From the NCBI GenBank assembly GCA_001800355.1, contig MGVF01000129.1, positions 1 through 46,203 on the forward strand: 46,203 nt of DNA, in the 5' to 3' direction. The translations under genes and the position numbers were made by a program. Below, one piece after another: positions 1 to 16,718 of this stretch (positions are counted from its first letter, which is position 1; each line of letters begins with the position of its first letter). The notes under the pieces are model-generated. The model was not told where the DNA came from. It saw only the letters and a program-made list of their open reading frames with translations, and did not search any database. The DNA comes from Elusimicrobia bacterium RIFOXYA2_FULL_50_26 (lineage in GTDB: Bacteria > Elusimicrobiota > Endomicrobiia > Endomicrobiales > XYA2-FULL-47-53).

Positions 1-2
1 AA

Positions 3-548
3 ACGCAATTTCCTTCCATAAATTTTCGTTGCGAGGATATTAGAAAAACTTCGTTCCCGGACAATCATTTTGATGCCTACATATCATGGGGTGTTATTGA
101 GCACTTCGAGAACGGGCCGGCCGAATGTATAAAGGAGGCGCATCGCCTGTTAAAACCCGGCGGGTTGTTGTTAGTCAGCGTTCCTTTTCATAACGTCCGG
201 CTTTTGCTGAGGCAATGGCTGACCGGTGTGGATGAACTAACGCCTTCGCCCGGTTGCGAAAAAGTATTTTACCAGTACAGGTTCAAAAAACATGAATTAG
301 CCGATGCATTGAAACAGGGAAATTTCGAAGTTGAAAAAATAGTGCCTATTCATAAATACCACGGTTTTTTAAGATTCCTGAATACATGCTGCCGGATTGA
401 TGTTGAAAAGGCCGGTGAGCTGATAAGAAAGAAACTGCATTCCAATATTTTGCGCAAGGCCTTTCTTTTGCCTTTTTATATTGCCGGAAGTATTATGCCC
501 GCCTGCCTGTTTTCACATATGATTCTTGCGGTGGGCAGGAAAAAATAA
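3..548 (+). CDS. class I SAM-dependent methyltransferase (5' end outside window)
   Basis: Frame 3 is open from base 3. It reads ...FPDNHFDAYISWGVIEHFENGPAECIKEAHRLLKPGGLLLVSVPFHN..., typical of Methyltransf_11/23-type enzymes. Track ORF 165..548 is only an internal remnant. Confidence 0.7.
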   Translation, partial: TQFPSINFRCEDIRKTSFPDNHFDAYISWGVIEHFENGPAECIKEAHRLLKPGGLLLVSVPFHNVRLLLRQWLTGVDELTPSPGCEKVFYQYRFKKHELADALKQGNFEVEKIVPIHKYHGFLRFLNTCCRIDVEKAGELIRKKLHSNILRKAFLLPFYIAGSIMPACLFSHMILAVGRKK

Positions 549-550
549 CC

Positions 551-1483
551 ATGCCACAGATAAGCGTAATAATGTCAGTCTACAACGGTGCGCGTTACCT
601 GCGCCAGGCCGTGGAAAGCGTGCTTGCCCAGAGTCTCGGCGATTTTGAGTTCATTATAATTGATGACGGCTCAAATGACGAATCTCCGGCCATTCTTGAC
701 GAGTATGCAAGCAGGGACGGACGCATTCGCCTGACACACAGGCAGAACAAAGGATTGACGGTTTCTTTAAATGAAATGATTGCCTCGGCCCGGGGTGGGA
801 TTATAGCGCGCCAGGATGCCGATGACTACTCGCACCCTGACCGTTTCATGGAACAAATGCGGTATCTGCGCAATAACCCGTGGATCATGCTTCTTGGAAC
901 AGCCGGATATATAATCAATGAAAATGGCGTTGTGATACAGCGCCAGAAAATTATGACGGGAACATCCCGCCTCCATAAAAAAATACTCAAAAATAACCGG
1001 TTTATTCACGGTTCGGTTATGATAAGAAAATCGTGCCTCGATGAGATAGGCGCCTATAATGACGTATTCATATACGGCGAGGATTACGAATTATTTCTGC
1101 GTATCGCGAACAAATATCCCGTTGACAATATTGATATGCCTCTCTATTATTACCGCATCAACCCGGCGTCCGTCTCGCTGGTTAACTGTCGTAAGCAGGA
1201 GCAGACCGGTATTGTCGTGCGGGAATTTTATCGCCGGAACAAGAACACAAGTGCTTTACTTGGCGCTACGGAATACGAAGCCCTTGCTAAACTTATCGCA
1301 GGTTCCTGGCTTAACAGGTTACTGGAAAGCAATATACACCTTGCAATGGGGAGAAATTTCAGGTTACGCGGCATGATACCAGAGGCACGCAGGCAATACG
1401 GGAAGGCATTTTTTTACTTACCGTCGCCCAGGAGCTTCTATCATCTTGCAAAATCATTTATATGCCGGGGTATAAAGAAATGA
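551..1483 (+). CDS. glycosyltransferase family 2 (GT-A fold)
   Basis: N-terminus ISVIMSVYNGARYLRQAVESVLAQSLGDFEFIIIDDGSNDES plus a DADD motif. Starts 3 nt after the upstream stop. Confidence 0.85.
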   Translation: MPQISVIMSVYNGARYLRQAVESVLAQSLGDFEFIIIDDGSNDESPAILDEYASRDGRIRLTHRQNKGLTVSLNEMIASARGGIIARQDADDYSHPDRFMEQMRYLRNNPWIMLLGTAGYIINENGVVIQRQKIMTGTSRLHKKILKNNRFIHGSVMIRKSCLDEIGAYNDVFIYGEDYELFLRIANKYPVDNIDMPLYYYRINPASVSLVNCRKQEQTGIVVREFYRRNKNTSALLGATEYEALAKLIAGSWLNRLLESNIHLAMGRNFRLRGMIPEARRQYGKAFFYLPSPRSFYHLAKSFICRGIKK

Positions 1484-2865
1484 AAGCGGTATTGATTCAA
1501 CCGAATGTGATGATGAAGGACACGGGGATACAGATTAACCACGGCCTGGCTGTTCTTGCTTCCATACTGTTGCAAAACGGTTGTGATGCGGATTTAAACA
1601 TAATTGACACCGTGTCATTTAACAATAAATCGTACCTGAAATTCATCGCCGCCGGAAATTACGACCTTGTCGCCGTAACCGCATATTCCAACCAGTGGGA
1701 GTTTATTAAACAAATAGCGTCCGGGATAAGGGAAATAACCGCTGCTCCTGTAATATGCGGCGGCCCGCACGCCACTCTTTTTCCCGGCGCCATTTGCGAG
1801 ACGGATGCGATAGATGCATTTGTCATAGGCGAGGGTGAAACGGCAATAGGTGATATCGTCCGGGGCATACGCAGCGGAAACGGCTGGTTGAATACGCAGG
1901 GAATACGTTCGCGCAATGTCGCGGCGCGCGGGGCTGCGCAGCGTACCGAGGACATTGATGTGTTGCCGTTTCCCGATTATGAGATATATGACAGAAAAAT
2001 AGTTCATAATTATCCGGGTATATTTTTCTCACGAGGTTGCCCCTATAATTGCAGTTATTGCTGCAATAGCGCTTACAGGGCGATTTACGGCGGGCAGGGG
2101 AAACCCATACGGTTTATGAGTCCCCCGCGGGCTGTCGCGCTGGCCAGGCGGTATAAGGATACAATCGGCCCCGATCATTTTGAGGTTGATGACGATACTT
2201 TTACCAAGAACCCTAAATGGCTGCGGGAATTCCTGGCTGAATACAGGAAAGACGTGAACATCCCGTTTAACTGCAACGCGCGCCCGGAGACGATTACACC
2301 CGAGGTGGCCCGGTTATTAAAAGAGTCCGGATGCATGACCGTGTCAATAGGCATAGAAAGCGGAGACGAGAATATTCGCCGGCAAGTGTTAAAAAGGAAC
2401 ATGAAGAATTCTTTTATAGAAAAATCGGCGGAGATCATTCACAGGGAGGGGTTGAAGCTTTCAACGTTCAACATGGTCGGCTTGCCGGGCGAAACATGGA
2501 GCAGTTTTTATGAAACGGTAAGGCTAAACCAAAGGATCAAGCCGGATAATGTTCAAATTTCCATCTATTACCCGTTCAGGGGCACGGAACTTGGCGAATC
2601 GTGTTATTCCGGAAACCTGGTTGAGGAGCACGCAAATTCGGGAAGCTATTTCGGGAAAAGCATTTTGAAACTGCCCGGTTTTCCTAAATGGAAAATTTCA
2701 GCAGGCCAGAGGCTGTTTAAGTTCCTCGTCTTTTCAAAAAGCTCATTGTTGGTTTCTGTCCGGGAATTGTTGAAGGATATAATAAAATCATTGCCCCTGT
2801 CTTATCTGCTTATTCCGCCATATCTGAAAATGAAAAAGTATTTAGCCGCAAAAGGCGGGGCATGA
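1480..2865 (+). CDS. B12-binding-domain radical SAM protein (paralog 1)
   Basis: ATGA overlap with the upstream stop (ATG 1480, TGA 1481-1483); track start 1462 is less likely. N-terminal Rossmann/B12-type module (DLVAVTAYS, CGGPHATLFP), then FFSRGCPYNCSYCCN (CX3CX2C). Confidence 0.85.
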   Translation: MKAVLIQPNVMMKDTGIQINHGLAVLASILLQNGCDADLNIIDTVSFNNKSYLKFIAAGNYDLVAVTAYSNQWEFIKQIASGIREITAAPVICGGPHATLFPGAICETDAIDAFVIGEGETAIGDIVRGIRSGNGWLNTQGIRSRNVAARGAAQRTEDIDVLPFPDYEIYDRKIVHNYPGIFFSRGCPYNCSYCCNSAYRAIYGGQGKPIRFMSPPRAVALARRYKDTIGPDHFEVDDDTFTKNPKWLREFLAEYRKDVNIPFNCNARPETITPEVARLLKESGCMTVSIGIESGDENIRRQVLKRNMKNSFIEKSAEIIHREGLKLSTFNMVGLPGETWSSFYETVRLNQRIKPDNVQISIYYPFRGTELGESCYSGNLVEEHANSGSYFGKSILKLPGFPKWKISAGQRLFKFLVFSKSSLLVSVRELLKDIIKSLPLSYLLIPPYLKMKKYLAAKGGA

Positions 2866-3719
2866 GCGTGATTACATTTGTAATACCGACGGTCGGTGCA
2901 TCGAAGAACGTATCCCGGTGCGTTGATTCCATAGCCGGCCAGCTTTCCGGCGAAGACGAGATTATTATCGTCCACCAGGGCGAAGACAATCCGGTTAGAT
3001 TTGCTCCCGTAGCCAGGTTATTTCATGTCAGTGAGTACGGTTTATCCAATGCGCGTAACGAGGGTGCGCGTTTGGCGGGCAACGGCATAATTGCATTCAT
3101 TGACGATGATGTGATGCTGGACAAGAATTATGCTGCCAGTATAAGAAAACATTTCAGCCGGGACATATCCGCGCTTTGCGGCAGATTGCTCAATACGGAC
3201 GATCATTCGCCATATGCCAGAGTTCATGACGATAAATTGATCGCCATAACATATTCGCCGGCGAGGTTGAAGAGGTGCCTGGGCGGCAATATGGTTTTCA
3301 GAAAGGAAGCATTCTTGGATGTGGGCGGCTATGATCGTTCATTCGGCGTCGGCGCAAAATACGGCGGCGCGGAGGACATTGATATAATCTTAAGGTTGCT
3401 TCACCGGAAAAAGCACAGGGTCATTTACGCGCCGGACGCGATAGGCTATCATGCAAGGGAAAACAGGCATAAGAACAGTAATTACATTGAAAAAGTATTC
3501 AATTACGGGATGGGAGAAGGCGCTGTCTATGCGAAGCATTTCATGGAAAAGAAGCTTTTGGTTCTTCTTGCCATATATGGCGTTGAAATAGCGAAGCCTT
3601 TTATTAAGCTGCTGTCGAGTACGCTTGCATTTGACGTATACGGTGTCAAAGTATATTCGGGAATTTTAAAAGGCAGGCTCAAGGGATTTTTTGATTATGC
3701 CAATGAAAAAAAGATTTAA
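2862..3719 (+). CDS. glycosyltransferase family 2
   Basis: ATGA overlap at 2862-2865. VITFVIPTVG..., AFIDDDV (DxD) and GAEDID motifs of GT-A enzymes. Confidence 0.8.
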   Translation: MSVITFVIPTVGASKNVSRCVDSIAGQLSGEDEIIIVHQGEDNPVRFAPVARLFHVSEYGLSNARNEGARLAGNGIIAFIDDDVMLDKNYAASIRKHFSRDISALCGRLLNTDDHSPYARVHDDKLIAITYSPARLKRCLGGNMVFRKEAFLDVGGYDRSFGVGAKYGGAEDIDIILRLLHRKKHRVIYAPDAIGYHARENRHKNSNYIEKVFNYGMGEGAVYAKHFMEKKLLVLLAIYGVEIAKPFIKLLSSTLAFDVYGVKVYSGILKGRLKGFFDYANEKKI

Positions 3720-5136
3720 CAATATTCTTCTGGTTAATGTTCCCGTTTCAAGAGGCAGGTATACCGTCCCGGATTTTCCGCCGGTTGGGCTTGGGTATTT
3801 ATCCGAGGCGCTTACCGTTAACGGCATAGAGCATGATGTTTTAGACATGATGCTGGGGTATAACGAAAACCACCTGTCCTCGGCGATTAGAAATAAAAAG
3901 TACGACCTTGTGGGTTTCAGCCTGTTCACTTATCATTACAAAGCTTCTTATGCGATCATCGCCGCGATTAAGAAGAAATTCCCTTCGCTGAAAATAATTG
4001 CGGGCGGGCCGCACGTGTCTACGTTCAGGGAAGACGTGCTTAAAGAGTGTCCCGCCATAGATTACGGCGTTGTAATGGAGGGAGAAGAAGCGATAGTGCG
4101 TATTTGCGACGCTTCGATTGAATGTCGCGGCATACCGGGTTTGATATACCGCGATAACGGCGAGATAATGTCAAACGCGGTCAGTGTATTGCGCGAGTTG
4201 GACGCTATACATTATCCGCGTTACCGGAAATTCGAATTAAAAAAGTATTCTTCGAATATCTCCATCATTACTTCGCGCGGCTGCCCATATCAGTGTATAT
4301 ATTGTCCCGTGCCGAGGACGATCGGCGAAATATTCCGTTGCAGGTCTCCGCGCAATATCGCGGAAGAGATACGGTACTGGTACGGTATCGGGTATCGAAG
4401 GATACTGGTATTGGACGACAATTTTACATTGATTCCCAAACGGGTGCGGGAATTATGCGATTTATTAAAATCCCTTAAACTCGAGGGGTTGGTTCTATCG
4501 TGCGCCAACGGCATCCGGGCGGATAAAACCGATTACGGGTTGCTGAAGGAAATGCGGGATGCGGGTTTTAACGAGATAGCTTTTGGCGTGGAATCAGCCA
4601 GCAATAAGGTTTTAAGCGCGATTCGTAAAAGCGAGAAAATCGAGACGATAGAGCAAAGAATCAAGGATGCCTGCGCACTTGATTACAAGGTGGTTTTATT
4701 CTTCATTATCGGTTCGCCAACGGAAACATATGACGATTTCCTGGAATCGGTGTCATTGGCATTAAGGTATCCGGTGTATTCCACGCGCTTTTACAATTTG
4801 ATACCATTTCCATACAGCCAGTTGTTCGAATGGGTGAAATCTAACAACCTGTTCGTCTCGCTCCCGGAAAAATACCTGAGCGAAGCGTCGCACCACATTA
4901 ACGAGCCTTTATTCTCCACTCCCGAGTTTAACCTGGAAAAACGTAAGAAAGCGTTCGCCTACGCCCAGGAAGTGGAGAAAACAGTGAAAAGGCGTTACGT
5001 TTTCAATAAAACCAACGGCCCTAAATTGTTCCGATACGTCGTATCCTTCCTTTACGCAAACGATATGATTAACCATTTATATCATAGTAATCCTGTTATA
5101 AGGCGTATCGGCCTGAAGTTGCGGAGGTTGATCTAG
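3691..5136 (+). CDS. B12-binding-domain radical SAM protein (paralog 2)
   Basis: KIIAGGPHVSTF B12-module motif and ITSRGCPYQCIYCPV cluster motif. Overlaps the upstream gene; the start could also be 3697 or 3703. Confidence 0.85.
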   Translation: MIMPMKKRFNNILLVNVPVSRGRYTVPDFPPVGLGYLSEALTVNGIEHDVLDMMLGYNENHLSSAIRNKKYDLVGFSLFTYHYKASYAIIAAIKKKFPSLKIIAGGPHVSTFREDVLKECPAIDYGVVMEGEEAIVRICDASIECRGIPGLIYRDNGEIMSNAVSVLRELDAIHYPRYRKFELKKYSSNISIITSRGCPYQCIYCPVPRTIGEIFRCRSPRNIAEEIRYWYGIGYRRILVLDDNFTLIPKRVRELCDLLKSLKLEGLVLSCANGIRADKTDYGLLKEMRDAGFNEIAFGVESASNKVLSAIRKSEKIETIEQRIKDACALDYKVVLFFIIGSPTETYDDFLESVSLALRYPVYSTRFYNLIPFPYSQLFEWVKSNNLFVSLPEKYLSEASHHINEPLFSTPEFNLEKRKKAFAYAQEVEKTVKRRYVFNKTNGPKLFRYVVSFLYANDMINHLYHSNPVIRRIGLKLRRLI

Positions 5137-6296
5137 TGCCAGCCATGAATCCGGAAAAATGCCGGCGTATCGGAATTGACATACGTTCCGCCAATAATAA
5201 AATCTGTGGAGTTACAAGGGTATCCCTGTGTCTCATACAGGCTTTATCGCAAATTGATACTCAGAATGAATATGTTATCTATACCAATTATGATATCTCA
5301 TCGCTTGCGCTCGGCAAAAATTTTATTGTTTCGAATTGCCGGTATTCAAAGAAAAATCCATTAAATGAAGTTGAAATTTATGTTAAGGCATTAAAAGATA
5401 AATTGCACATTTTACATTCCACGCGTTCCTGGCTGCCGGTGCTGGTTCCGCCAAAAGTAAAAACGGTGGTAAATATTCACGATCTTTTCTTTATTGTTGA
5501 CCCGTTTTACTTCAAGAGGTACGGATTTTATTCTTTTCTTCCACGGCTATGGTTAAAGTATTCCATTTTTTCTACCGTAAGTAAGGCTCACGCCATAGTA
5601 ACAGGTTCGCAATTTTCCAAAGCCCAGATAAACGGTATTTTCAGTAAGTGCAAAGACAAATTATGCGTGATATACGATGCCGCGGGCCTGGATAAGGAAA
5701 ACCTGTCCGGAGTCTGCATAAATCCTTCGGGCAGGAAATATTTTCTGTATGTAGGCAACGGCAGGAGTTACAAAAACCTGGAAATATTATTGAGGGGATT
5801 TGCGCTTTTTACAAAGAAACACGCGGCTGCGGACATATCGTTATACATCGCGGGTAATGACGCTTACGCGCAGGAAAAAGAACTTGCAAAGAATAGCGGT
5901 ATCGGGCAAAAAGTTGTTTTCGTTTCGAATCCTTCGGACCGGGATATAATTGAGTTGTACTCCAGTGCAATGGCATTCGTTTTGCCCTCCAAATTTGAGG
6001 GGTTTGGTATACCGGTGCTGGAGGCAATGAGTTTTGGCATTCCGGTGATTACTTCAGACGCGGATGCGCTGCTTGAAATTGCCGGCAACGCCAGCCTTGT
6101 TTTCAGGCGCGACAGCCCTGACGAGCTGGCATCCTGTTTTGCCCGTATGGCAGGAGATGGTGAACTCAAGAGAGAGTTGATAGCAAAGGGATACCGGAAT
6201 ATAGAGAACTATAGCTGGAAAATAAGTGCGCAACAGTTGGTCGGCCTGTATTATAAATTAACCGGTAAGGAAATCTATGATAACCATGTGCTTTGA
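5136..6296 (+). CDS. glycosyltransferase, GT-B fold (Glycos_transf_1 / CAZy GT4-type)
   Basis: C-terminal PSKFEGFGIPVLEAMSFGIPVITSD (EX7E region). Start is GTG 5136 or ATG 5145. Confidence 0.85.
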   Translation: MPAMNPEKCRRIGIDIRSANNKICGVTRVSLCLIQALSQIDTQNEYVIYTNYDISSLALGKNFIVSNCRYSKKNPLNEVEIYVKALKDKLHILHSTRSWLPVLVPPKVKTVVNIHDLFFIVDPFYFKRYGFYSFLPRLWLKYSIFSTVSKAHAIVTGSQFSKAQINGIFSKCKDKLCVIYDAAGLDKENLSGVCINPSGRKYFLYVGNGRSYKNLEILLRGFALFTKKHAAADISLYIAGNDAYAQEKELAKNSGIGQKVVFVSNPSDRDIIELYSSAMAFVLPSKFEGFGIPVLEAMSFGIPVITSDADALLEIAGNASLVFRRDSPDELASCFARMAGDGELKRELIAKGYRNIENYSWKISAQQLVGLYYKLTGKEIYDNHVL

Positions 6297-6311
6297 ACGT
6301 TTAGATTCATT

Positions 6312-7706
6312 ATGCAATCACAACCGGGTGGAGTTATGACAGAAACACTTGTGATGGTTGATCCCGGGTTTTTGGGAGAATATGGCATAGGTAAATGGGG
6401 AAGATCCTATTGGTCAAGTGCGATAAATCATGGCGTAGCCCAGATTGCCGGAGTCTGCAAGGCGCATGGCGTCGGCGTTCATCTCATGGATTTGAGATGT
6501 TATCCATCTTACGATGAGTTTGAAAAGGAGATTAAAAAACGCCGTGAGAAATGGTATGCAATAACATGCCGCACGGTTGACGTTCCGGTTGTGGAAAATA
6601 TAATAGCTATTATAAGAAGGCAGAAACCGGATGCGAAGATTGTTGTAGGCGGTATTCATGTCAACCTTGTTCCGGGTATATATGCCGCCGATAACAGGAT
6701 TGACCATGTGTTTCTGGGCGAGGCGGATATAACAATGCCTCAATTGCTTGCCGATCCCGGTAAATTTTCAAAAATCGTTAAAGGAGAAATACCGGTTATT
6801 GACGATATTCCTTTCGAGGATATTGATATATATGATTATGATAAATCAACATCGTTTACATTGTATGGCGGCATAGTGAAGGCGCCGATGATTCCTGTCA
6901 TTACCAGCAGGGGGTGTGTGTACAATTGTAAATTCTGTCAACCCGCAGAGCGAATCCTTTACGGATCGCGCTACAGGCAGAAGAGTGTCGCGCGTATAAT
7001 GGAAGAGATCAAAAGGATTGCTGAAAACCATGAATTTAACTCCATCATGTTTTATGACGATTGTATACTGGGCCAGAAGAAAATACTGCATGAGTTGCTG
7101 GAAAAATTGGCGGCATTTAAAAAAATCGAAATAATGTTACAGGGGCGCGCCGATAATATTTGCCAATGGGGTGATGAAATCAGGAAATTGAAGGATTATG
7201 GGTTAAAGGCTGTCATCGTCGGCTTTGAAAGCGGCAGCCAGCGAATACTTGATTTTATAGGCAAGGGTACGACCGTTGAGCAAAATATGCTTGCCGGAGA
7301 AATACTTCATAAAAGCGGGATAAAAATAGTCGGTAATTTTATGATAGGATTGCCCACCGAACAGAAGGATGAGATGGATGCGACAGCGCTGCTCGCGGAG
7401 AAAATCCGGCCCACTATTGCCAGTTGTTCGTTTTATTCGCCTATGCCGGGCAGTCATATTTATGATTATTGCAATGACAATGAACTTATTATTGAAAAAA
7501 ATTTTGAAAGATTAAGCCGCGATCCTCGCAAGCCAAAGATCAAAATGGTTGATTATGCATTTGCCAATACGATATTGCCGCGGATTGTCGGAAGCAGGTT
7601 TAATAATAGATTTGTAAAAAAGCTGGTGGGTTACGCATATAAGAATATGAACAGGGGGATACTACGGGAAGCCATGACACGTTTATATAACAAGGTTGCC
7701 AAATGA
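6312..7706 (+). CDS. B12-binding-domain radical SAM protein (paralog 3)
   Basis: KIVVGGIHVNLVP module motif and ITSRGCVYNCKFCQP (CX3CX2C). Confidence 0.8.
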   Translation: MQSQPGGVMTETLVMVDPGFLGEYGIGKWGRSYWSSAINHGVAQIAGVCKAHGVGVHLMDLRCYPSYDEFEKEIKKRREKWYAITCRTVDVPVVENIIAIIRRQKPDAKIVVGGIHVNLVPGIYAADNRIDHVFLGEADITMPQLLADPGKFSKIVKGEIPVIDDIPFEDIDIYDYDKSTSFTLYGGIVKAPMIPVITSRGCVYNCKFCQPAERILYGSRYRQKSVARIMEEIKRIAENHEFNSIMFYDDCILGQKKILHELLEKLAAFKKIEIMLQGRADNICQWGDEIRKLKDYGLKAVIVGFESGSQRILDFIGKGTTVEQNMLAGEILHKSGIKIVGNFMIGLPTEQKDEMDATALLAEKIRPTIASCSFYSPMPGSHIYDYCNDNELIIEKNFERLSRDPRKPKIKMVDYAFANTILPRIVGSRFNNRFVKKLVGYAYKNMNRGILREAMTRLYNKVAK

Positions 7707-9145
7707 AAATACTCCTGGTTAACCCCCCGTTTTTACCTAAGTTTTCGCGTAGTTCGCGCAGTCCCGCGGTTACCAAGAGCGGGACTATTTATTATCCGCT
7801 TTGGCTTGCTCATGCGGCGGGGCTTCTTGAAAAGCGCGGGCACGAGGTGATGCTGCTTGATTTTCCGGCGGCCGGGCGCGCGCTTTCAGACGAAAAAGAG
7901 CGCATAATGGAGTTCCGCCCCGCCATCGTGGTTTGCGATACTTCAACGCCCAGCATAGAGTCGGACGTTCAATGTCTTGCGGAAATAAAATCGTGGTTTG
8001 CCGCGGGCGTATCTGGCGTTCTTGTGGGCACGCATGTATCGGCGCTTGCCGAGGAAACGTTTGCATTGAGCCGCGCCGTTGACGTTGTCGCGCGCGGGGA
8101 ATATGACCTTACGCTTTGCGAGCTTGCCGACGGGCGGTGCGAGCGCGAGGCCATCACGGGCATCAGCTACCGCTCAGGCGAAAAAATAGTCCGTAACCCG
8201 GACCGCCCATACATGGAATCTCTCGATGAATTGCCGTTCGTAAGCTCCGTGTATAAAAAACACCTGGACATAAACAATTATTTCTATGCCCATTGCCAGA
8301 ATCCCGTTATCTCAATATTTGCGGGGCGCGGCTGCCCGAACAGGTGTTTCTTTTGCGTTTACCCGCAGGTGATGTTCGGCCGGCGTTACCGCCACCGGAG
8401 CGCGGCGCACCTTGTTGACGAGCTTTGCTTTATCGCCCGCGAATTCCCGCAGGTAAAAGAGGTACTTATTGATGACGACAATTTCACGGCAGACCAGCCG
8501 TTCGTGGAAGAGGTGTGCGACGAGATAGTGCGCCGCGGCCTTTCCGTTACGTGGACCGCCGAGGCGCGCGTCGAACTTGCTTACCCCGTGATGGTTAAAA
8601 TGAAACGCGCCGGTTGCCGGCTTCTTGTCGCGGGTTTCGAAAGCGGCGTGCAGCAGGTGCTGGATGCCGTCAACAAAGGCACGACTGTTGCGCGAGCGGA
8701 ACAGTTTTTGCGCGATGCCAGGCGGGCTGGCTTGAGGGTTCACGGCTGCTTCATGGCAGGTAACCGCGGCGACACGCGCGAAACGCTTAATAGCACTCTG
8801 CAATGGGCCATGAAGCAAAAACTTGATACCGCACAGTTTTTCCCGCTGATGGTATATCCCGGCACCGAGGCCTACCAGTGGGCGAGTTCAAACGGCTATA
8901 TATCGGCCGGGAGTTTCCGCGATTGGCTGACGGCTGACGGTATGCACCGTTGCGTGATTTCCAGCGAAAATTTAGCCGCCGGCGAGCTTGTTGATTTCTG
9001 TGACCATGCGCGCCGGAAATTTTACCTTCGCCCGCGCTACTTTTTATACAAGCTGGCCGACATCCTGCGCCACCCGTCCGAAACCGGCCGCACATTGATT
9101 GCCGCGCGCAAACTTTTCAGCCACCTGTTCAGGAAACACAGCTAG
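7703..9145 (+). CDS. B12-binding-domain radical SAM protein (paralog 4, HpnJ-like N-terminus)
   Basis: ATGA overlap at 7703-7706. MKILLVNPPF...SRSPAVTKSGTIYYPLWLAHAAG and FAGRGCPNRCFFCVYP. From memory, the N-terminal pattern resembles HpnJ-type enzymes. Confidence 0.8.
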   Translation: MKILLVNPPFLPKFSRSSRSPAVTKSGTIYYPLWLAHAAGLLEKRGHEVMLLDFPAAGRALSDEKERIMEFRPAIVVCDTSTPSIESDVQCLAEIKSWFAAGVSGVLVGTHVSALAEETFALSRAVDVVARGEYDLTLCELADGRCEREAITGISYRSGEKIVRNPDRPYMESLDELPFVSSVYKKHLDINNYFYAHCQNPVISIFAGRGCPNRCFFCVYPQVMFGRRYRHRSAAHLVDELCFIAREFPQVKEVLIDDDNFTADQPFVEEVCDEIVRRGLSVTWTAEARVELAYPVMVKMKRAGCRLLVAGFESGVQQVLDAVNKGTTVARAEQFLRDARRAGLRVHGCFMAGNRGDTRETLNSTLQWAMKQKLDTAQFFPLMVYPGTEAYQWASSNGYISAGSFRDWLTADGMHRCVISSENLAAGELVDFCDHARRKFYLRPRYFLYKLADILRHPSETGRTLIAARKLFSHLFRKHS

Positions 9146-9151
9146 CCGATT

Positions 9152-10255
9152 ATGTTATTTCTCATTCTTCTGTTTCTGATATTCTATTCGTACATGATTT
9201 TCCCGCTTGTGCTGGCGGCGTTGCGGCCGTTTGCGCGCCGGAGGTTCGGGCATGGGCGGGTGGAAGCGGTTACGGTTGTATGCGCGGTGCATAATGAAGA
9301 GAAAATTATAGCGCAAAAGATCCACAATTTTTATGCGCTCGAATATCCCGTGCCGCCCCGGCTTTTTCTCGGGCTTGACGGTTGTTCCGACGGTACCCGC
9401 GCGCAAATAGAGGGCGCGGTTAAAGACGGCCGGGTGCAATATTTTCAGTTCCCGCGCCAGGGCAAGGCGCAAACGCTCAATGCGCTGATGGAAAAAGTGT
9501 CCACGCCCTATTCCGTCATGACTGACGCAAATTCAATGTTCGATGCCGATGCGCTTTTGCGCCTGGCCGAAACGATGAGCGATGAAACAGGTGTTGTCTG
9601 CGGCCGGCTTGTGCTTGTTGATTCACTGGGCAATTCAGGCGAAGGGCTTTACTGGCGTTATGAAACCATGCTTAAAAAATTTGAAAACGCATTCGGCTCC
9701 GTCATGGGCGCAAACGGCGCCATATATATGTTGCGCAGCGCGCTGTACGAAAAACTTCCCATGGGTACAATCAACGACGATTTTTCGATTTCGATGAAGA
9801 TATACGAGAAAGGCCATGCCATGCGCTACGCCGCCGCCGCCGTGGCGCGTGAAGAGGCCGGTTCGTCCGATGCCGATGAATTCTCCCGGCATGTGCGCGA
9901 CGGCGCCGGGCATTACCGCGCTCTGGTTTACCTTTGCGGGATGCTTAATCCTTTAAGGCCGGTGCGCTTCTTTTTTTACGTGAGCCACAGGGTCTTGCGG
10001 TGGATGGCGCCGTTTAGCATGATAGCTCTATACGTTATTTCCTGCCTCCGTTTTAATGAACCGGCCTACCGTCTGGCATGGTTTGCGCAGAGTGCCTGTT
10101 ACGGCGCGGTGGCGGCCGTGCATTTCCTCAAAACAAAGCCAAGGCTGCTTAGAATACCGTATTATTTTGTGTTGATTAACGGCGCGCTGCTTGCGGGCTT
10201 CGTTAAACTCTGCACGGGCCGCCAGCAGTCCGTATGGGTACCGTTGAAACGATGA
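9152..10255 (+). CDS. integral-membrane glycosyltransferase family 2
   Basis: N-terminal TM helix, VTVVCAVHNEE, LGLDGCSDGT, VMTDANS, and several C-terminal TM helices. Confidence 0.8.
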   Translation: MLFLILLFLIFYSYMIFPLVLAALRPFARRRFGHGRVEAVTVVCAVHNEEKIIAQKIHNFYALEYPVPPRLFLGLDGCSDGTRAQIEGAVKDGRVQYFQFPRQGKAQTLNALMEKVSTPYSVMTDANSMFDADALLRLAETMSDETGVVCGRLVLVDSLGNSGEGLYWRYETMLKKFENAFGSVMGANGAIYMLRSALYEKLPMGTINDDFSISMKIYEKGHAMRYAAAAVAREEAGSSDADEFSRHVRDGAGHYRALVYLCGMLNPLRPVRFFFYVSHRVLRWMAPFSMIALYVISCLRFNEPAYRLAWFAQSACYGAVAAVHFLKTKPRLLRIPYYFVLINGALLAGFVKLCTGRQQSVWVPLKR

Positions 10256-10292
10256 TGATTATCACAGGCGCCAGCATTACATGTGTGGTCTT

Positions 10293-10379
10293 CCCCTCAC
10301 CCTGCCCTCTCCCCGGAGGGTAGAGGGTTTTAGGTCTATAATTCCTCTCCCCGCCGGGGAGAGGATCAAGGTGAGGGGG
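10293..10379. repeat. R1 mosaic palindromic element, 2 hairpin units
   Basis: CCCCTCACCCTGCCCTCTCCCC-GGA-GGGTAGAGGG...CCTCTCCCC-GCC-GGGGAGAGGATCAAGGTGAGGGGG. The outer arms are reverse complements. Confidence 0.85.
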
Positions 10380-10403
10380 AGTTAATACGTTTTAATCAGA
10401 AAG

Positions 10404-11384
10404 ATGTATATGAAACTATTTATAATATGCTCAATTCCGTTTATTATTTCTTACGCGCTTTCGCGGGTGGTTATTTGGCGGAGCGCGGGCTGGGGGCTTA
10501 TTGATTTGCCGAATGCGCGCAGTTCGCATTCCGTTCCCACGCCGCGCGGCGGCGGGATAGGCATAGTTTCAGGCATTATTGCCGGCGTTGCGGTAGTTTA
10601 CGCGGCCGGGCTTGAACGCTTTACTTCATTGGCATGGCTGGCCGCGCTTACCGCGGCCATGGCGGTTACTGGTTTTGTAAGCGACCGCTGCAACTCGCCG
10701 GTGCGCCTGCGCCTGGCCGCGCAGCTTACCATGGCGCTTGCGGCGGTGTTTATTCTCGGGCGCGCCGGTATCTCCTGGCCGGGCGCTCTTATTGCAATAG
10801 GCATTGCAGGCGCCGTAAACTTCTATAATTTCATGGATGGCATTGACGGCCTTGCGGGCGCACAGGCGGCCATCGGCGGCGCCGCGCTTGCGGCCTTCGG
10901 ATTTATCACAGGGCAGTCCTGGCTTATTTTTTCAGGGTTAATCATGGCGGGCGCTGCCGCGGGATTTCTTGCGCTTAACGTTACCCCGGCAAAAATTTTC
11001 ATGGGCGATACGGGCAGTTACGCGATAGGATTTTTCTTCGCCTGCGTGCCATTGCTTGACGGCCGGCTGTTCGTTCCCGTCATGCTTGTGATGGGTACGT
11101 TTTTGTTCGATACCATTGTAACGCTTGCGTTAAAGCCCGGGCGCGGCATTCGTTGGCACGAGGCGCACCGCAGCCATTTTTATCAGCGGGCCGTGGCGCT
11201 TGGATATTCGCACCTGCAGGTTACCGCGGCCATGGGCGCGCTCACAATACTTTTTTCCGCGGGCGCATGTATATATCTTGTATCGCAGGCTACCGCGGTC
11301 AAGACTGTTATCGTAGCGGCAGAGTTGTCGGCGCTCGTTTTATGCGCCGCGCTGATAAGTAAAAACAGGAGAGGTCTGGCATGA
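10404..11384 (+). CDS. polyprenyl-phosphate HexNAc-1-phosphate transferase (MraY/WecA/WbpL family)
   Basis: Polytopic membrane protein with NFYNFMDGIDGLAG and IFMGDTGSY motifs. Start is 10404 or 10410. Confidence 0.85.
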   Translation: MYMKLFIICSIPFIISYALSRVVIWRSAGWGLIDLPNARSSHSVPTPRGGGIGIVSGIIAGVAVVYAAGLERFTSLAWLAALTAAMAVTGFVSDRCNSPVRLRLAAQLTMALAAVFILGRAGISWPGALIAIGIAGAVNFYNFMDGIDGLAGAQAAIGGAALAAFGFITGQSWLIFSGLIMAGAAAGFLALNVTPAKIFMGDTGSYAIGFFFACVPLLDGRLFVPVMLVMGTFLFDTIVTLALKPGRGIRWHEAHRSHFYQRAVALGYSHLQVTAAMGALTILFSAGACIYLVSQATAVKTVIVAAELSALVLCAALISKNRRGLA

Positions 11385-13219
11385 AAAAAATCCGGTACTA
11401 CCGCAAGATTCTTGTCGTCTGCATGGATATCGCGTTGACAGCCATAAGTTTCTTCCTGGCATTTTACCTGCGTTTCGACGGGCGCGTCCCGGCCGAACAC
11501 ATGGTTGGCTATTACACCTGGATGCCGGTGCTTGTCGGCATACGCCTGGGCTTCTTTTTGTTTTTCGATTTATACGGCGGCATGTGGCGTTACGCAAGCA
11601 TCAACGACCTGCTGGCGATAATCAAGGCGGCTGGTTCCGGCAGCATGGTGTTCGTGCTGGTTATCGTATTTTTTCACGGGCTTGTCGGTTTCCCAAGGTC
11701 GGTGTTCATTACCGAGCTTGTTTTTACAATTGTTCTTCTCGGCGCCAGCAGGTTTGCGCTCAGGGTTCACCGCGAGGTATTTCCTAAGAAAAGCATGCTT
11801 GCCGAGAAAAAACTGCTTATCATCGGGGCCGGGGATGCGGGCTACATGCTGTTGCGCGAGATAAAAAACAATCCCGCGCTGAATTATCGCGTCGTAGGTT
11901 TTATTGATGATGAAAAATTAAAACAGAGCATGAACATACAGGGTGTGCCGATACTCGGCACCCGCCATGACATTGCCCGCGTGGTGGAGTTGATGGAAGT
12001 TGACGAGATAATTATCGCAATCCCGTCCGCAACGCGCTACCAGCTAAGGCCGATCGTCGAGGAATGCGAAAAGGCGCGCGTAAGAGTAAAGACTACGCCT
12101 GCCATCGGCGATCTTATTAACGGGAAAATTACCTTCAGCCAGGTGCGCGAGGTCCAGATTGAGGATCTCCTGGGACGCGAAGTGGTGCGCATTGACAAGG
12201 ACATAATCGGCAAATACATCGCCGGTAAAAGGGTGATGGTAACCGGCGCCGGCGGTTCGATAGGAAGCGCGATCTGCCGCAAGGTGATGAAGTTCGCGCC
12301 CAAATCGCTTGTGCTTTTCGGCCGGGGGGAATTCAGCATATACGAGATAAATAACGAGCTGTCGTCGGTAAAAGGCGAAACTGAGCTTGCCCAGGTCATC
12401 GGCGGAGCGACGGACAAGCGCCGGCTGGACGCAATTTTGGAAAAATACAGGCCGCAGATAATATTTCATGCCGGCGCGGACAAGCATGTTCCTTTGCTTG
12501 AGCTAAATCCCGGCGAGGCGATTTTAAACAATGTCATAGGAACAAAGTGCCTGATAGAATCGGCCGAGGAACATGGCGTTGAAAAGGTTGTATGCATTTC
12601 CACCGATAAGGCCGCGGACCCGGTAAGCGTGATGGGCTGCGCAAAGCGTATCGTCGAGATGATTATCCAGGGCAGGAAGAGCGAAACCACCACTACTATC
12701 GGCGTGCGGTTCGGCAACGTGCTCGGTTCGCGCGGCAGCGTTATACCGCTGTTCCGCCGGCAGATAGCGCGCGGCGGCCCGGTAACCGTTACACACCCCG
12801 AAATGGTGCGCTATTTCATGACTATCCCCGAGGCGGCCGGGCTTGTGCTTCAGGCTGGCGCCATGGGAAAATGCGGCGACCTGTTTCTTTTGGACATGGG
12901 AAACCCCGTCAATATACATGACCTTGCGCGCCAGATGATTCTGCTTTCGGGGCTTGAGCCGGATAAGGATATACCCATAGAGTTCACGGGTTTAAGGCCG
13001 GGCGAAAAACTGGTTGAATCGCTGACCGGCGCAAACGAGGCGCTTTGCCACTCCGATCACGCAAAAATATTCCTGATCAAATTTCACGGCGAACAGCCCG
13101 GGTTAAGCCGGCAGCATATAGAAGAGCTTGCTGCCATGGCAATGGAATCCGATAGCGATAGCATCAGGCGAAAACTCAAAGAGATCGTGCCAAACTACCA
13201 ACCCTGGACGCAAAATTGA
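11381..13219 (+). CDS. membrane-anchored NDP-sugar 4,6-dehydratase/epimerase (CapD/PglF/WbpM family)
   Basis: ATGA overlap at 11381-11384. Four N-terminal TM helices, LLIIGAGDAG and VMVTGAGGSIGSAICRKV Rossmann motifs, and ISTDKAADP. Confidence 0.85.
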   Translation: MKKIRYYRKILVVCMDIALTAISFFLAFYLRFDGRVPAEHMVGYYTWMPVLVGIRLGFFLFFDLYGGMWRYASINDLLAIIKAAGSGSMVFVLVIVFFHGLVGFPRSVFITELVFTIVLLGASRFALRVHREVFPKKSMLAEKKLLIIGAGDAGYMLLREIKNNPALNYRVVGFIDDEKLKQSMNIQGVPILGTRHDIARVVELMEVDEIIIAIPSATRYQLRPIVEECEKARVRVKTTPAIGDLINGKITFSQVREVQIEDLLGREVVRIDKDIIGKYIAGKRVMVTGAGGSIGSAICRKVMKFAPKSLVLFGRGEFSIYEINNELSSVKGETELAQVIGGATDKRRLDAILEKYRPQIIFHAGADKHVPLLELNPGEAILNNVIGTKCLIESAEEHGVEKVVCISTDKAADPVSVMGCAKRIVEMIIQGRKSETTTTIGVRFGNVLGSRGSVIPLFRRQIARGGPVTVTHPEMVRYFMTIPEAAGLVLQAGAMGKCGDLFLLDMGNPVNIHDLARQMILLSGLEPDKDIPIEFTGLRPGEKLVESLTGANEALCHSDHAKIFLIKFHGEQPGLSRQHIEELAAMAMESDSDSIRRKLKEIVPNYQPWTQN

Positions 13220-13263
13220 CAAAATAGCCGGATTGTACTAATATTGAAGTGTAATTTATAATT

Positions 13264-13428
13264 CCCCCTCACCCCACCCTCTCCCCAAAGGGTAGAGGGC
13301 TTCAGGCATATAATTCCTCTCCCCAAAGGGTGGAGGGTTTTAGTCTTATAATTCTGCTCCCCAAAGGGTGGAGGGTTTTAGTCTTATAATTCCTCTCCCC
13401 GTCGGGGAGAGGATTAAGGTGAGGGGGG
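13264..13428. repeat. R1 mosaic element, 4 hairpin units in 38-bp tandem
   Basis: CCTCTCCCC-NNN-GGG(T/G)(A/G)GAGG units start at 13278, 13316, 13354 and 13392 (exact 38-bp period). Bounded by CCCCCTCACC ... GGTGAGGGGGG. Confidence 0.9.
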
Positions 13429-13464
13429 ACGTCTAAAAGCTACATTTAAAAGTACAGGTAAATC

Positions 13465-14268
13465 ATGGATGGCATAGGTATAATTCAATCGGTTGTGCTG
13501 GGCGTGGTGGAAGGGTTGACGGAGTTTCTGCCCATTTCTTCGACGGGGCACCTCATTCTTGCGGCGGAGATGCTCGGCGCTCACGGCGAGAAGGCCAAGC
13601 TTTTCGAGGTGTTTATCCAGCTGGGCGCGATACTTGCGGTGTTGTGGATTTACCGCCGGAAAATAGTTTCCGTTATAATGCAGTTGCCGTCCGAAACCGG
13701 CGCCCGCCGCCTTGCGCTGGGGCTTGTGATAGCGTTCCTGCCCGCGGCCGTCGTAGGCCTGGTGGCGCATAACGGCATAAAAAAATACCTCTTCTCTCCG
13801 TACACGGTGGCCGTGGCGCTTTTTATCGGCGGCCTTGTGATTATGTGGATAGAAAGCAGGAAGCACAGCGGCACGATAGAAGACGTTGACAAACTCACGC
13901 TCCGTTCCGCGTTTCTTGTAGGTATCGCGCAGGTGTTCGCGCTGGTGCCGGGCGTATCGCGCGCCGGCGCAACCATCATGGGCGGCCTGCTTGCCGGGAT
14001 GTCGCGCAAAACCGCGACGGAATTCTCGTTTTTCCTGGCCATTCCCACAATGCTTGCGGCAACTACGTTCGATCTCGCCAAGGGGTATTCCGCGCTGACT
14101 TCAGGCGATATGAAAATACTTGCCGTCGGCTTTATCGCCGCATTCGTATCCGCGCTATGGGTTGTCCGCTGGCTGCTTGCATTCATATCGCACAACGATT
14201 TCAAGCTCTTCGCCTGGTACCGCATAATATTCGGCATATTCCTGATGCTACTATATTATTTCAGGTAA
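13465..14268 (+). CDS. uppP: undecaprenyl-diphosphate phosphatase
   Basis: GVVEGLTEFLPISSTGHLIL and VPGVSRAGATI signature blocks of BacA/UppP; 267 aa. Confidence 0.9.
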   Translation: MDGIGIIQSVVLGVVEGLTEFLPISSTGHLILAAEMLGAHGEKAKLFEVFIQLGAILAVLWIYRRKIVSVIMQLPSETGARRLALGLVIAFLPAAVVGLVAHNGIKKYLFSPYTVAVALFIGGLVIMWIESRKHSGTIEDVDKLTLRSAFLVGIAQVFALVPGVSRAGATIMGGLLAGMSRKTATEFSFFLAIPTMLAATTFDLAKGYSALTSGDMKILAVGFIAAFVSALWVVRWLLAFISHNDFKLFAWYRIIFGIFLMLLYYFR

Positions 14269-14437
14269 CCATAAGTTCCTTCTCCCCGTCGGGGAGAAGG
14301 CCAGGATGAGGGGGAAGTCGCCGGGGACAGAACGTTCAACTCCCCCTCACCTTAATCCTCTCCCCGAAGGGGAGAGGAAATGAGTCAACGGCGATAATCT
14401 CAGGCTTATTTACAATGACAAACTCAGGATGAGGGGG
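14269..14437 (+). mobile_element. R1 bipartite element (MITE-like)
   Basis: CATAAGTTCCTTCTCCCC-GTC-GGGGAGAAGGCCAGGATGAGGGGG, a 27-nt spacer, then CCCCCTCACCTTAATCCTCTCCCC-GAA-GGGGAGAGGAAATGAG..GCGATAATC. Starts directly after the uppP stop. A solo CAGGATGAGGGGG sits at 14425-14437. Confidence 0.8.
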
Positions 14438-14473
14438 TAATGTAGTTATTTCAGCCGGAAAAGGATAATTAAA

Positions 14474-15115: not shown

Positions 15116-15122
15116 ATAAAAG

Positions 15123-15243
15123 GTGTCTCTTTAGCAGTTTGAGGTTGTCGTCGTCATTGCGAGCCCAAAGGGCGCGGCAATCTCGCTTTTCATCAGAAGC
15201 AACGTCGAGATTGCTTCGCTTTCGCTCGCAATGACCTCAAACT
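15123..15243 (+). mobile_element. R2a MITE (GTCATTGCGAGC palindrome family)
   Basis: 121 bp flanked by a perfect 9-bp direct repeat AAATAAAAG (15114-15122 and 15244-15252). Left end GTGTCTCTTTAGCAGTTTGAGG; the right terminal repeat is shortened. Inserted between the convergent stops of dedA and the hydrolase gene. Confidence 0.8.
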
Positions 15244-15252
15244 AAATAAAAG

Positions 15253-16446: not shown

Positions 16447-16491
16447 AAAATCTCCTTAAAATCTTCCCGCTGTCCCCTCGTAAACTTACTT

Positions 16492-16650: not shown

Positions 16651-16689
16651 AGGCTTAAACTTAAGAGGGGAAGGCGTAGTCAAACACGT

Positions 16690-16718
16690 ATACTACCTTA
16701 TAATGTATTCGTTGTCAA
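16690..16718 (-). promoter_or_regulatory. sigma-70-like promoter for the hydrolase gene
   Basis: The minus strand reads TTGACA-17 nt-TAGTAT. The transcript would cross the 16492-16650 element before the start at 16446. Confidence 0.4.

Follow-up and report, generated by a model that had tools for sequence, protein, structure and literature searches.

We analyzed positions 1-46,203 of contig MGVF01000129.1 from Elusimicrobia bacterium RIFOXYA2_FULL_50_26, a genome from Rifle groundwater; this whole stretch of 46,203 nucleotides is called the window below. Positions 1-13219 hold the downstream two-thirds of a co-directional glycan operon of about 22 kb, which runs from a Wzx flippase gene to a UptA-like gene and in which four radical S-adenosylmethionine (SAM) enzymes, here named rSAM1 to rSAM4, are interleaved with glycosyltransferases (GTs). 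Genes were called from a list of open reading frames (ORFs) together with Pfam and NCBIfam scans, and all genes of the operon lie on the plus strand. The window edge cuts a class I SAM-dependent methyltransferase, of which the C-terminal part is left (positions 3-548; Pfam Methyltransf_11/23/25). It is followed by GT2a, a soluble family-2 glycosyltransferase that lacks a hydrophobic segment (551-1483; PF00535, E 1.4e-31), by rSAM1, a 461 amino acid radical SAM protein of class-B architecture (1480-2865; PF02310 and PF04055, with the motifs GGPH, IGEGE and CPYNCSYC), and by a second family-2 enzyme, GT2b (2862-3719; PF00535), which shares an ATGA overlap with rSAM1. The next genes encode the class-B radical SAM protein rSAM2 (3703-5136; 477 amino acids; PF02310, E 5e-20, and PF04055), for which we adopted the start codon of protein P0241, a GT4 glycosyltransferase of 383 amino acids (5145-6296; PF00534, E 8e-32) and the third class-B protein, rSAM3 (6336-7706; 456 amino acids; PF02310 and PF04055), whose true start is eight codons 3' of the long-ORF start.

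The second half of this gene row begins with rSAM4 (7703-9145), a 480 amino acid sister of HpnJ that matches the HpnJ model TIGR03471 over its full length and is the conserved core enzyme of the locus. Its partner is GT2c (9152-10255; PF00535/PF13632/PF13506), a membrane GT2 with a weak GT21-like match, in which segments 2-20 and 281-299 are above the hydropathy threshold and more hydrophobic stretches can be seen by eye toward the C-terminal; by the same hydropathy analysis rSAM1-4 are without membrane segments. Then comes an initiating transferase of the WecA/WbpL type, a polyprenyl-phosphate N-acetylhexosamine (HexNAc)-1-phosphate transferase (10404-11384; PF00953, E 1e-25; TIGR02380 at 63.8 bits, below cut-off), which is hydrophobic over its whole length (11 partly overlapping windows of the hydropathy scan), and a membrane-anchored UDP-HexNAc 4,6-dehydratase of the CapD/PglF/WbpM type (11381-13219; PF02719, E 1e-110, and PF13727, CoA_binding_3). 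Two carrier-recycling genes close the row: a UppP/BacA undecaprenyl-diphosphate phosphatase (13465-14268; PF02673, E 2e-83) and a DedA-family homologue of the UptA-like transporters of undecaprenyl phosphate (Und-P) (14474-15115; PF09335; NF052604 at 157.5 bits against a cut-off of 250). Start and stop codons overlap as ATGA at 1480, 2862, 7703 and 11381, as read directly from the sequence. A preliminary description of this DNA had already given this gene order, the four overlaps, the CX3CX2C motifs and the motifs of the B12-binding domains, and all of these are borne out by the ORF map, the domain scans and direct reading. A promoter and terminator scan revealed no operon boundary, and the terminators found in positions 1-17000 were not different from those in shuffled sequences.

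The part of the operon that lies beyond the window edge is present on a sister contig, MGVO01000003.1 (GCA_001800525.1; locus L094), which is 90.5 kb long, agrees with the window at 99.9% identity across 13.4 kb and belongs, by the name of one of its proteins, to Elusimicrobia bacterium RIFOXYB2_FULL_50_12. All of its upstream genes are co-directional with the operon of the window. A Wzx-type flippase (Polysacc_synt_3, at least 389 amino acids) lies 8.3 kb upstream of window position 1, and 6.2 kb upstream is a 697 amino acid fusion of a GT4 with a radical SAM domain that is SPASM- or twitch-like (L094:1190-3283), which matches no curated family and is the fifth radical SAM domain of the operon. 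The fusion is followed by a GT4, a Methyltransf_24-like gene, two further GT4s, a class I methyltransferase, a Wzy_C protein of 429 amino acids that could serve as polymerase or ligase (0.3 kb upstream of window position 1), and the complete form of the edge methyltransferase (273 amino acids; L094:9177-9998). The upstream region thus adds four GT4s, one of them the fusion, and three complete methyltransferase genes. In total, the operon encodes nine sugar-adding enzymes (the initiating transferase and eight others, three GT2 and five GT4) and four methyltransferases (three class I, the fourth matching Methyltransf_24 weakly). Its radical SAM domains number five, of which four have the class-B architecture and the fifth, of SPASM type, is fused to a GT4. 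Comparison of the two contigs also shows that seven of nine base differences in the first 13.4 kb fall in rSAM4 and GT2c (7915-9882), the remaining operon being identical. The CapD-uppP spacer holds a 38-nt tandem array of 3.2 copies (13278-13400), which is shorter by about 46 nt, roughly one unit, in MGVO01000003.1; this is the sole structural difference in the shared 15 kb.

The logic of an Und-P-linked glycan, which the preliminary description read from the WecA-type transferase and the dehydratase, is strengthened by these upstream genes, since the flippase (Polysacc_synt_3) and polymerase-type (Wzy_C) genes that it had named as a check are indeed found there. An initiating transferase is present, with flippase and Wzy_C genes in one cluster on the sister contig, and the flippase and Wzy_C genes argue for a Wzx/Wzy-type pathway linked to polyprenyl phosphate. 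Our reading, to which we give a probability of roughly 0.7, is that the operon makes a Wzx/Wzy-type polyprenyl-diphosphate-linked heteroglycan (O-antigen, capsule or exopolysaccharide-like) which is tailored by radical SAM enzymes.

The base composition divides the operon into two parts. The core of rSAM4, GT2c, WecA and CapD has a GC content of 0.54-0.56 and the upstream part, with rSAM1-3, of 0.43-0.48; the step from 0.425 in rSAM3 to 0.562 in rSAM4 falls exactly at the ATGA junction at position 7703. The nearest relatives of the two genes on either side of this junction are also discordant: in locus L001 the orthologue of rSAM3 is 76% identical and that of rSAM4 52%. This suggests that recombination at position 7703 has joined a variable cassette to a conserved core. 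The GC jump together with the discordant histories of rSAM3 and rSAM4 fits the layout of O-antigen and capsule loci, in which a conserved core is joined to a swappable low-GC region.

The conserved core is rSAM4 followed by the membrane enzyme GT2c, beside an initiating transferase and a dehydratase. By Pfam, a GT2 gene lies directly 3' of rSAM4 in 60 of the 76 non-redundant loci; a clear GT2c orthologue is the partner in half of them (38/76), and the GT21-like model is matched as well in 55 of the 77 proteins scanned, that of the window included. With a crude gene caller the rSAM4-GT2 order was observed 51 times, where 2000 shuffles within loci gave 9.3 ± 2.9 with a maximum of 20. Wider context was counted in the 44 loci whose flanks are nearly complete (at least 19 kb): 42 have at least one GT2 or GT4, 31 an initiating transferase of the WecA type or the Bac_transf family, and 16 a dehydratase that is strictly of the CapD type. 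Two annotated loci may serve as examples of a full capsule or exopolysaccharide system of the Wzx/Wzy type. Clostridium sp. JS66 (L003) has Wzz, a tyrosine-kinase-type ATPase, CapD, Bac_transf, rSAM4, GT2, a pyruvyl transferase and Wzx. The locus of Deltaproteobacteria GWB2_55_19 (L038) reads GT1, GT4, GT2, the GT-C-type protein PMT_2, Wzy, GT9, an rSAM2-like gene and rSAM4, and continues with GT2c, WecA, CapD, Wzz, Wza and Wzi.

Relatives of rSAM4 were surveyed with one genome per GTDB species and occur in at least 362 species genomes. The best 80 are 46-71% identical over the full length and come from Thermodesulfobacteriota, Clostridia (many), Veillonellaceae, Omnitrophota, Chloroflexota, anammox Planctomycetota, Nitrospirota, Bacteroidota, Spirochaetota and Magnetococcales, and from the archaeal Iainarchaeota and Hydrothermarchaeota. 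Cultured carriers among the Clostridia are Otoolea muris, Sporotomaculum syntrophicum and Desulfocucumis palustris. The rSAM4-GT2 cassette is therefore common to hundreds of bacteria and archaea, largely of anaerobic lineages, and it is nearly always found in glycan clusters. An orthologue of 45% identity is also carried by the 27-kb plasmid 1 of Lawsonia intracellularis (NC_008012.1; L086). On that plasmid, positions 9001-15611 hold the orthologue, a second radical SAM gene and five class I methyltransferases amid GT2 genes, and there are also genes that look like those of sugar-phosphate or heptose metabolism (SIS domain, HAD-IIIA and GHMP kinase).

The nearest named family of rSAM4 is HpnJ. 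The protein matches TIGR03471 from end to end with 375.8 bits against a cut-off of 577.6, and the next family, BchE, reaches 142 bits; it is 36% identical over its full length to the authentic HpnJ of Mycetohabitans rhizoxinica, which is encoded in an hpnI-hpnJ-hpnK locus. In a neighbour-joining tree the rSAM4 family is monophyletic with HpnJ as its sister. Median identity is 51% within the family, 50% between its archaeal and bacterial members and 36% between the family and HpnJ. Among the six radical SAM proteins of the window (two more, rSAM5 and rSAM6, are encoded distally), only rSAM4 shares with HpnJ a long loop between β1 and α1, a single Gly, and (G/E)E(Y/F)D instead of GEGE; the two also share a DxLPFV...NYF...GRGC block. 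The β1-α1 loop of rSAM4 (residues 12-30) is invariant in the family and has a low predicted local distance difference test score (pLDDT), and the Cys triad, G109 and H111 are invariant in the family as well.

Analysis of the six proteins shows that each has one CX3CX2C motif, a PF04055 match of E 1.7e-14 to 9e-24 and, N-terminal of this radical SAM core, a PF02310 match of 36.8-72 bits (gathering score 32.1). The class-B motifs for the cobalamin tail are Gly-Gly (β4) and Gly-Glu (α5) (PMC9204698), and the motifs given here were assigned to β4 and α5 from the alignment alone. A GGxH motif is found in five of the six proteins (three times GGPH, once GGIH and once GGHH) and is accompanied by a GEGE-like motif in these five (rSAM1, 2, 3, 5 and 6); rSAM4 has VGTH and GEYD, and the authentic HpnJ has VGAK and EEFD. 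Since rSAM1-3 keep the canonical cobalamin-tail motifs, they are better methylase candidates than rSAM4. The preliminary description counted six paralogs. Six genes with B12-binding and Radical_SAM domains are indeed there, but pairwise identity is only 24-29%, so that the word "paralogs" is apt at the level of the superfamily and does not denote recent duplicates.

Comparison with known families places rSAM1-4 at a distance from any of them. No curated cut-off of a family of known function is reached by rSAM1-4 in NCBIfam; for rSAM1-3 the best models are HpnJ, BchE, PhpK, the "ladderane" lipid radical SAM family and MJ_1487, with at most 104-136 bits on any model, all far under the curated cut-offs; on the HpnJ model TIGR03471 they reach 104-136 bits. 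The relatives of rSAM1-3 in the PDB are remote (AprD4, MgmA, CysS, TokK, TsrM and OxsB, E 1e-5 to 1e-15), and AprD4 is the best PDB sequence match for rSAM1, rSAM2 and rSAM4. The scores of the radical SAM proteins on the AprD4 model NF033070 are 31-73 bits against a cut-off of 500, below those on HpnJ and BchE. In an AlphaFold2 model (pLDDT 84, pTM 0.86), rSAM4 adopts the class-B fold; AprD4 is again the best fold match (6FD2, TM-score 0.75-0.79), followed by TsrM, CysS, OxsB, MgmA and TokK, with all five of which the model aligns over the full length. Of the outcomes that the preliminary description saw as damaging, neither a known unrelated function nor a loss of cofactor motifs was therefore found: the motifs are kept, no cut-off for a known function is reached and the structural relatives are remote.

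A third such outcome, an arrangement confined to this genome, is contradicted by a second organism (L093, from a Logan assembly), which keeps the interleaved order: methyltransferases, GT2, rSAM1, GT2, rSAM2 and, after further genes, GT4, rSAM3, rSAM4 and GT2. Identities there are 60% for rSAM1, 67% for rSAM2, 63% for rSAM3 and 52% for rSAM4, against 55% for GT2b, 33% for GT4 and 39% for GT2c, and GT2a is replaced (28%); conservation is thus higher in the radical SAM genes than in most of the adjoining GTs. The genes of the variable low-GC part of the operon, rSAM1-3, recur in varied combinations in other genomes. The block of methyltransferase, GT2a, rSAM1 and GT2b is found again in L006, with an rSAM1 orthologue of 48%, and a metagenome scan with rSAM1 gave a single relative of 26%. 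In seven loci (L007, L023, L031, L032, L038, L046 and L053), all of them from metagenome-assembled genomes of "Deltaproteobacteria" or Desulfobaccales, a gene like rSAM2 (35-41%) lies directly 5' of rSAM4, and the two often overlap by 4 nt; in L038 the rSAM2-like gene is preceded by a GT9. In L019 a split relative of rSAM2 (32-41%) occupies the same place 5' of rSAM4. Orthologues of rSAM3 (61-76%) are found directly 5' of the rSAM4 orthologue in L001, L002/L034, L013 and L093, and in L001, L002 and L093 the rSAM3 orthologue is also preceded by a GT4. Multi-rSAM glycan loci recur, in that 25 of 83 loci have two or more class-B radical SAM genes within ±10 kb, and in six the number is three or more. 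The densest of the sample is that of Candidatus Brocadiaceae bacterium S225 (L077, 1-12578), with six class-B radical SAM genes in 10 kb, the last of which is rSAM4 with its GT2.

More distant relatives of rSAM3 tie these radical SAM families to carbohydrate metabolism, both by fusions and by neighbourhoods. P0040 is a fusion of a GT2 with a B12-type radical SAM domain, in a locus that encodes a further GT2 and a PMT_2 protein; P0073 is fused to a nucleoside diphosphate (NDP)-sugar epimerase of the short-chain dehydrogenase/reductase (SDR) type, and P0038 to a methyltransferase. In the Dehalococcoidales locus L090 a relative of 37% lies between a sugar-1-phosphate nucleotidyltransferase and an SDR epimerase/dehydratase, with ORFs that overlap or abut. 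In L089 (Omnitrophota) a homologue is found amid GT2s, PMT_2 proteins, an SDR and a GT28-like gene.

On the reading of a radical-tailored Wzx/Wzy-type glycan, the pathway would run as follows. The CapD/PglF-type dehydratase would make UDP-4-keto-6-deoxy-HexNAc and so supply a first sugar of the 6-deoxy-HexNAc type, which the WecA/WbpL-type enzyme would place on Und-P, and GT2c would add a sugar at the membrane. The 5'-deoxyadenosyl radical of rSAM4 may then abstract a hydrogen from an unactivated carbon of a membrane-bound sugar, either the one added by GT2c or the first, with a C-methyl, ring-contracted or deoxy sugar as the outcome. The variable GTs would lengthen the unit, rSAM1-3 would add further radical tailoring and the class I methyltransferases would O-methylate it. 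Wzx would flip the unit, the Wzy_C protein would polymerise or ligate it, and UppP and UptA would recycle the carrier. We infer the assembly steps from established pathway knowledge and the step of rSAM4 from HpnJ.

A wider hypothesis is that rSAM4 and its membrane GT2 form an ancient, horizontally mobile two-enzyme module, which puts a ring-contracted carbocyclic (cyclitol-ether) or a C-alkylated residue into polyprenol-linked surface glycans, the radical step taking place on an intermediate bound to the membrane. The hopanoid enzyme HpnJ would have branched off later from this glycan-tailoring family, and operons with up to five radical SAM domains would modify the glycan backbone at several unactivated carbons. 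In this full form we regard the hypothesis as unlikely.

Several points weigh against the reading of a radical-tailored Wzx/Wzy-type glycan. The window and the 9.4 kb before it showed neither Wzz nor Wza, and the Wzy_C protein could be a ligase or O-oligosaccharyltransferase-like enzyme and not a polymerase, with lipid A-core, protein or none as the final acceptor. Judged from sequence, the reactions of rSAM1-4 may be C-methylation, ring contraction or dehydration, and the substrate may be a lipid-linked sugar or an NDP-sugar. AprD4 is not known to use cobalamin. As it is the best structural match of rSAM4, and as rSAM4 and HpnJ are without the canonical Gly-Gly, the cobalamin dependence of rSAM4 is uncertain. 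GT2c was tried as an orthologue of HpnI and rejected (BLAST E 0.88; hhalign probability against HpnI 86.7%, lower than against GT2a and GT2b of the window); because it is no nearer to HpnI than generic GT2s are, the analogy with HpnI/HpnJ is carried by the radical SAM enzyme alone. From the near 1:1 interleaving the preliminary description had proposed a radical step for each added sugar or for a lipid aglycone, and the idea of one step per sugar fares differently along the operon. It is backed for rSAM4 and GT2c, by the 60 of 76 loci and the gene-order shuffles, and more weakly for rSAM1 and GT2b, which are paired in two relatives. The accessory radical SAM genes as a group lend it no support in a weak test that counted GT2 and GT4 neighbours but not GT9 or GT-C: in the 83 loci they lie beside a GT2 or GT4 in 9 of 36 cases, where 10.7 ± 2.5 are expected. 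Modification of an NDP-sugar before transfer is as plausible as modification after it, given the rSAM3 relatives in operons of nucleotidyltransferase, radical SAM and SDR genes and the fusion to an SDR.

One explanation that follows from this last point is that some or all of the class-B radical SAM enzymes, especially rSAM1-3, act before transfer and convert NDP-sugars to unusual donors (C-methyl, deoxy or epimerised), so that the interleaving with GTs would reflect donor supply. The gene between nucleotidyltransferase and epimerase/dehydratase in L090 and the epimerase fusion P0073 fit this explanation, as does the homologue of L089, which lies two genes 3' of the SDR with a GT28/monogalactosyldiacylglycerol-synthase-like GT and a UDG-family gene between; so does the lack of membrane segments in rSAM1-4. 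However, the operon has no nucleotidyltransferase and no SDR beside rSAM1-3, the GT-rSAM fusions (P0040 and the GT4-rSAM/SPASM protein of L094) fit action on the product of the GT equally well, and for HpnJ, which among characterised enzymes is nearest to rSAM4, the proposed substrate is a sugar carried on a lipid, namely the glucosamine of bacteriohopanetetrol glucosamine, which becomes a cyclitol ether (PMC13459092, PMC9204698). We rate action before transfer as less likely than not.

Another hypothesis, which we likewise put forward only tentatively, is that all four enzymes are cobalamin-dependent C-methyltransferases that set C-methyl branches on several sugars, with a heavily C- and O-methylated glycan as the result. 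Methylation is the predominant reaction of class B, which counts MoeK5 among its C-methylases (PMC9204698), the GGxH and GE motifs of its cobalamin-binding members are kept in rSAM1-3, and the operon is already rich in methyltransferases. Yet no cut-off of a methylase model is reached, the Gly-Gly motif is degenerate in rSAM4 and HpnJ, and sequence cannot tell methylases from the members that rearrange or dehydrate.

For rSAM4 itself, a functional equivalence with HpnJ may be considered: the pyranose of the sugar added by GT2c would be turned into a five-membered carbocycle (a cyclitol ether), giving the surface glycan a linkage that resists acid and glycosidases. The HpnJ score of 376 bits against 142 for BchE, the 36% full-length identity, the shared atypical motifs, the sister position in the tree and the pairing with a membrane GT2, as in hpnI-hpnJ-hpnK, all agree with it. 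We nevertheless think such an equivalence quite unlikely. Within class B, an identity of 36% is no guarantee of the same reaction, as the case of ThnK and ThnL teaches. No HpnK-type deacetylase is conserved beside the pair, GT2c is not HpnI-like, and a carbocycle within the chain must still serve as acceptor for the later GTs. The reaction of HpnJ was itself inferred only from a knockout (PMC13459092).

The likeness to AprD4 leads to a different proposal: rSAM4, perhaps along with others of the set, would remove oxygen from a sugar as a radical 1,2-diol dehydratase that needs no cobalamin and works with a partner reductase. AprD4 works with AprD3, a pairing that the SDR-linked relatives resemble, since these are fused to or lie beside SDR reductases, and AprD4 is the best match in both PDB sequence (rSAM1, 2 and 4) and fold (rSAM4). 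A best match means little where PDB coverage of class B is so sparse, though, and with scores on NF033070 far from its cut-off of 500 and below those on HpnJ and BchE, and with the CapD dehydratase as the only SDR near rSAM1-4, we find this proposal improbable. Finally, that some or all of the enzymes serve a product other than a glycan, such as a peptide or a lipid of the hopanoid-like or ether kind, and only happen to lie in a glycan locus would agree with their best NCBIfam models, which are related to lipids or pigments (HpnJ, BchE and the "ladderane" family, all below cut-off), and with a separate β-ketoacyl-ACP synthase (KAS)/HpnR-like cluster in the same window, but it is highly improbable, since the radical SAM genes are tightly and translationally coupled to GTs, GT-rSAM fusions exist, the operon has no genes for lipid synthesis or precursor peptides, and the rSAM4-GT2 pair belongs to glycan clusters in many phyla, among them those of Clostridia and of DPANN archaea, neither of which is known to produce hopanoids.

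The preliminary description had also pointed to two distal radical SAM genes. These are the HpnR-like class-B gene rSAM5 (40339-41724; 238 bits against a cut-off of 650) and the class-B gene rSAM6 (42689-44362; 557 amino acids), both with B12-binding and Radical_SAM domains. We rejected them as members of the glycan system: they are 27 kb away, behind housekeeping genes, and their context, with KAS and ICMT genes, is of the lipid type. In the cluster at 39125-44362, a FabF-like β-ketoacyl-ACP synthase (455 bits), rSAM5, a membrane methyltransferase of the ICMT/PEMT family and rSAM6 stand together, and this looks like a lipid-modifying set that is unrelated to the glycan operon. Just upstream of it, positions 37576-38682 encode a 368 amino acid protein with only the C-terminal DNA-binding domain of sigma-54 (PF04552), whose RpoN scores are far below cut-off.

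Other features of the window lie around the operon. A putative glycoside hydrolase of the DUF4015 family (15253-16446, minus strand, 367 bits) is convergent with the end of the glycan/UppP/UptA block. Four consecutive minus-strand genes at 17430-23093 encode proteins of 140, 618, 220 and 902 amino acids; Pfam matches nothing in the first three, whereas the last has a CarboxypepD_reg domain as well as a prepilin-type N-methylation motif, and together the four may be an unusual pseudopilin or secretion-related set. A palindrome CTCCCC-N3-GGGGAG, similar to repetitive extragenic palindromic (REP) elements, occurs inside repeat units of about 40-130 nt in 19 copies at 13 places, where shuffles give an expectation of 0. 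The copies are at 10347, 13395, 14282, 14360, 16537, 16615, 24611, 25095, 25167, 26592, 31052, 31281, 35565, 35637, 37138, 41781, 41859, 42499 and 42577. They are intergenic at all places but one, and one copy lies in the 148-nt gap between GT2c and WecA. The pair at 41781 and 41859 is inside the long TTG-start ORF of the ICMT-like gene, whose real start is therefore probably further 3'.

Radical SAM enzymes that act on carbohydrates have been described in antibiotic pathways (GenK, AprD4, MoeK5 and BtrN) and for two lipid head groups, those of HpnJ and calditol synthase. As a routine tailoring of cell-surface polysaccharides such chemistry was not found in the searchable literature, and full-text searches for class-B radical SAM enzymes in the contexts of O-antigen, exopolysaccharide, capsule or lipid-linked oligosaccharide gave nothing relevant. 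If rSAM4-GT2 and the accessory enzymes modify sugars, then C-methyl, deoxy or carbocyclic residues would be expected on the surface glycans of many anaerobes, and the carriers would include gut Lachnospiraceae, Lawsonia intracellularis, anammox bacteria and DPANN archaea. Such residues would be missed by standard glycan analysis and by glycosidases. Biochemists would have many diverse, soluble homologues with which to study the reaction of HpnJ, and a sizeable part of the annotation space of "unknown B12-binding radical SAM" proteins would gain a functional context. The S-layer glycan of Kuenenia is heavily methylated; no link to radical SAM genes has been drawn there, and the observation is circumstantial.

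Comparison with known systems shows which parts of this locus are familiar. The B-band O-antigen loci of Pseudomonas aeruginosa are Wzx/Wzy-dependent and end in wbpL-wbpM. The operon resembles such loci in its 3' PF00953 transferase beside a membrane-anchored PF02719 dehydratase and in its upstream low-GC block of GT, Wzx and Wzy genes; it differs in its five radical SAM tailoring domains, which the literature searched does not report for characterised O-antigen or capsule loci, and in the uppP and uptA-like genes attached 3'. With HpnJ, rSAM4 shares the single-Gly motif, the β1-α1 loop and the position of its gene beside that of a membrane GT2, but the rSAM4 family is a separate clade that stays below the HpnJ cut-off (376 against 578 bits), has no HpnK or HpnI and has a partner that is not HpnI-like; domain scans of the window likewise showed no HpnK, HpnI or cyclase domain. 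Its context is also different: polyprenyl-linked glycan synthesis in anaerobes and archaea, as against the hopanoid synthesis of HpnJ, which the consulted reviews list in the hopanoid context only. AprD4 (PDB 6FD2), a paromamine 1,2-diol dehydratase, is similar in fold, in its compact size of about 450 amino acids and in acting on a carbohydrate, yet it is only 22% identical and belongs to the biosynthesis of a secondary metabolite and not of a polyprenyl-linked glycan. MoeK5, Fom3 and GenK, which we compared by description only, share the class-B architecture and are C-methyltransferases of sugars or small phosphonates, whereas they belong to antibiotic pathways of actinomycetes. MoeK5 methylates a lipid-linked sugar. 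In a sequence similarity network this enzyme of the moenomycin pathway is grouped with HpnJ and Fom3 (PMC9204698). The frame of the pathway is thus standard Wzx/Wzy, and what is unusual is the class-B radical SAM tailoring set within it, above all the rSAM4-GT2 cassette that is found in both domains.

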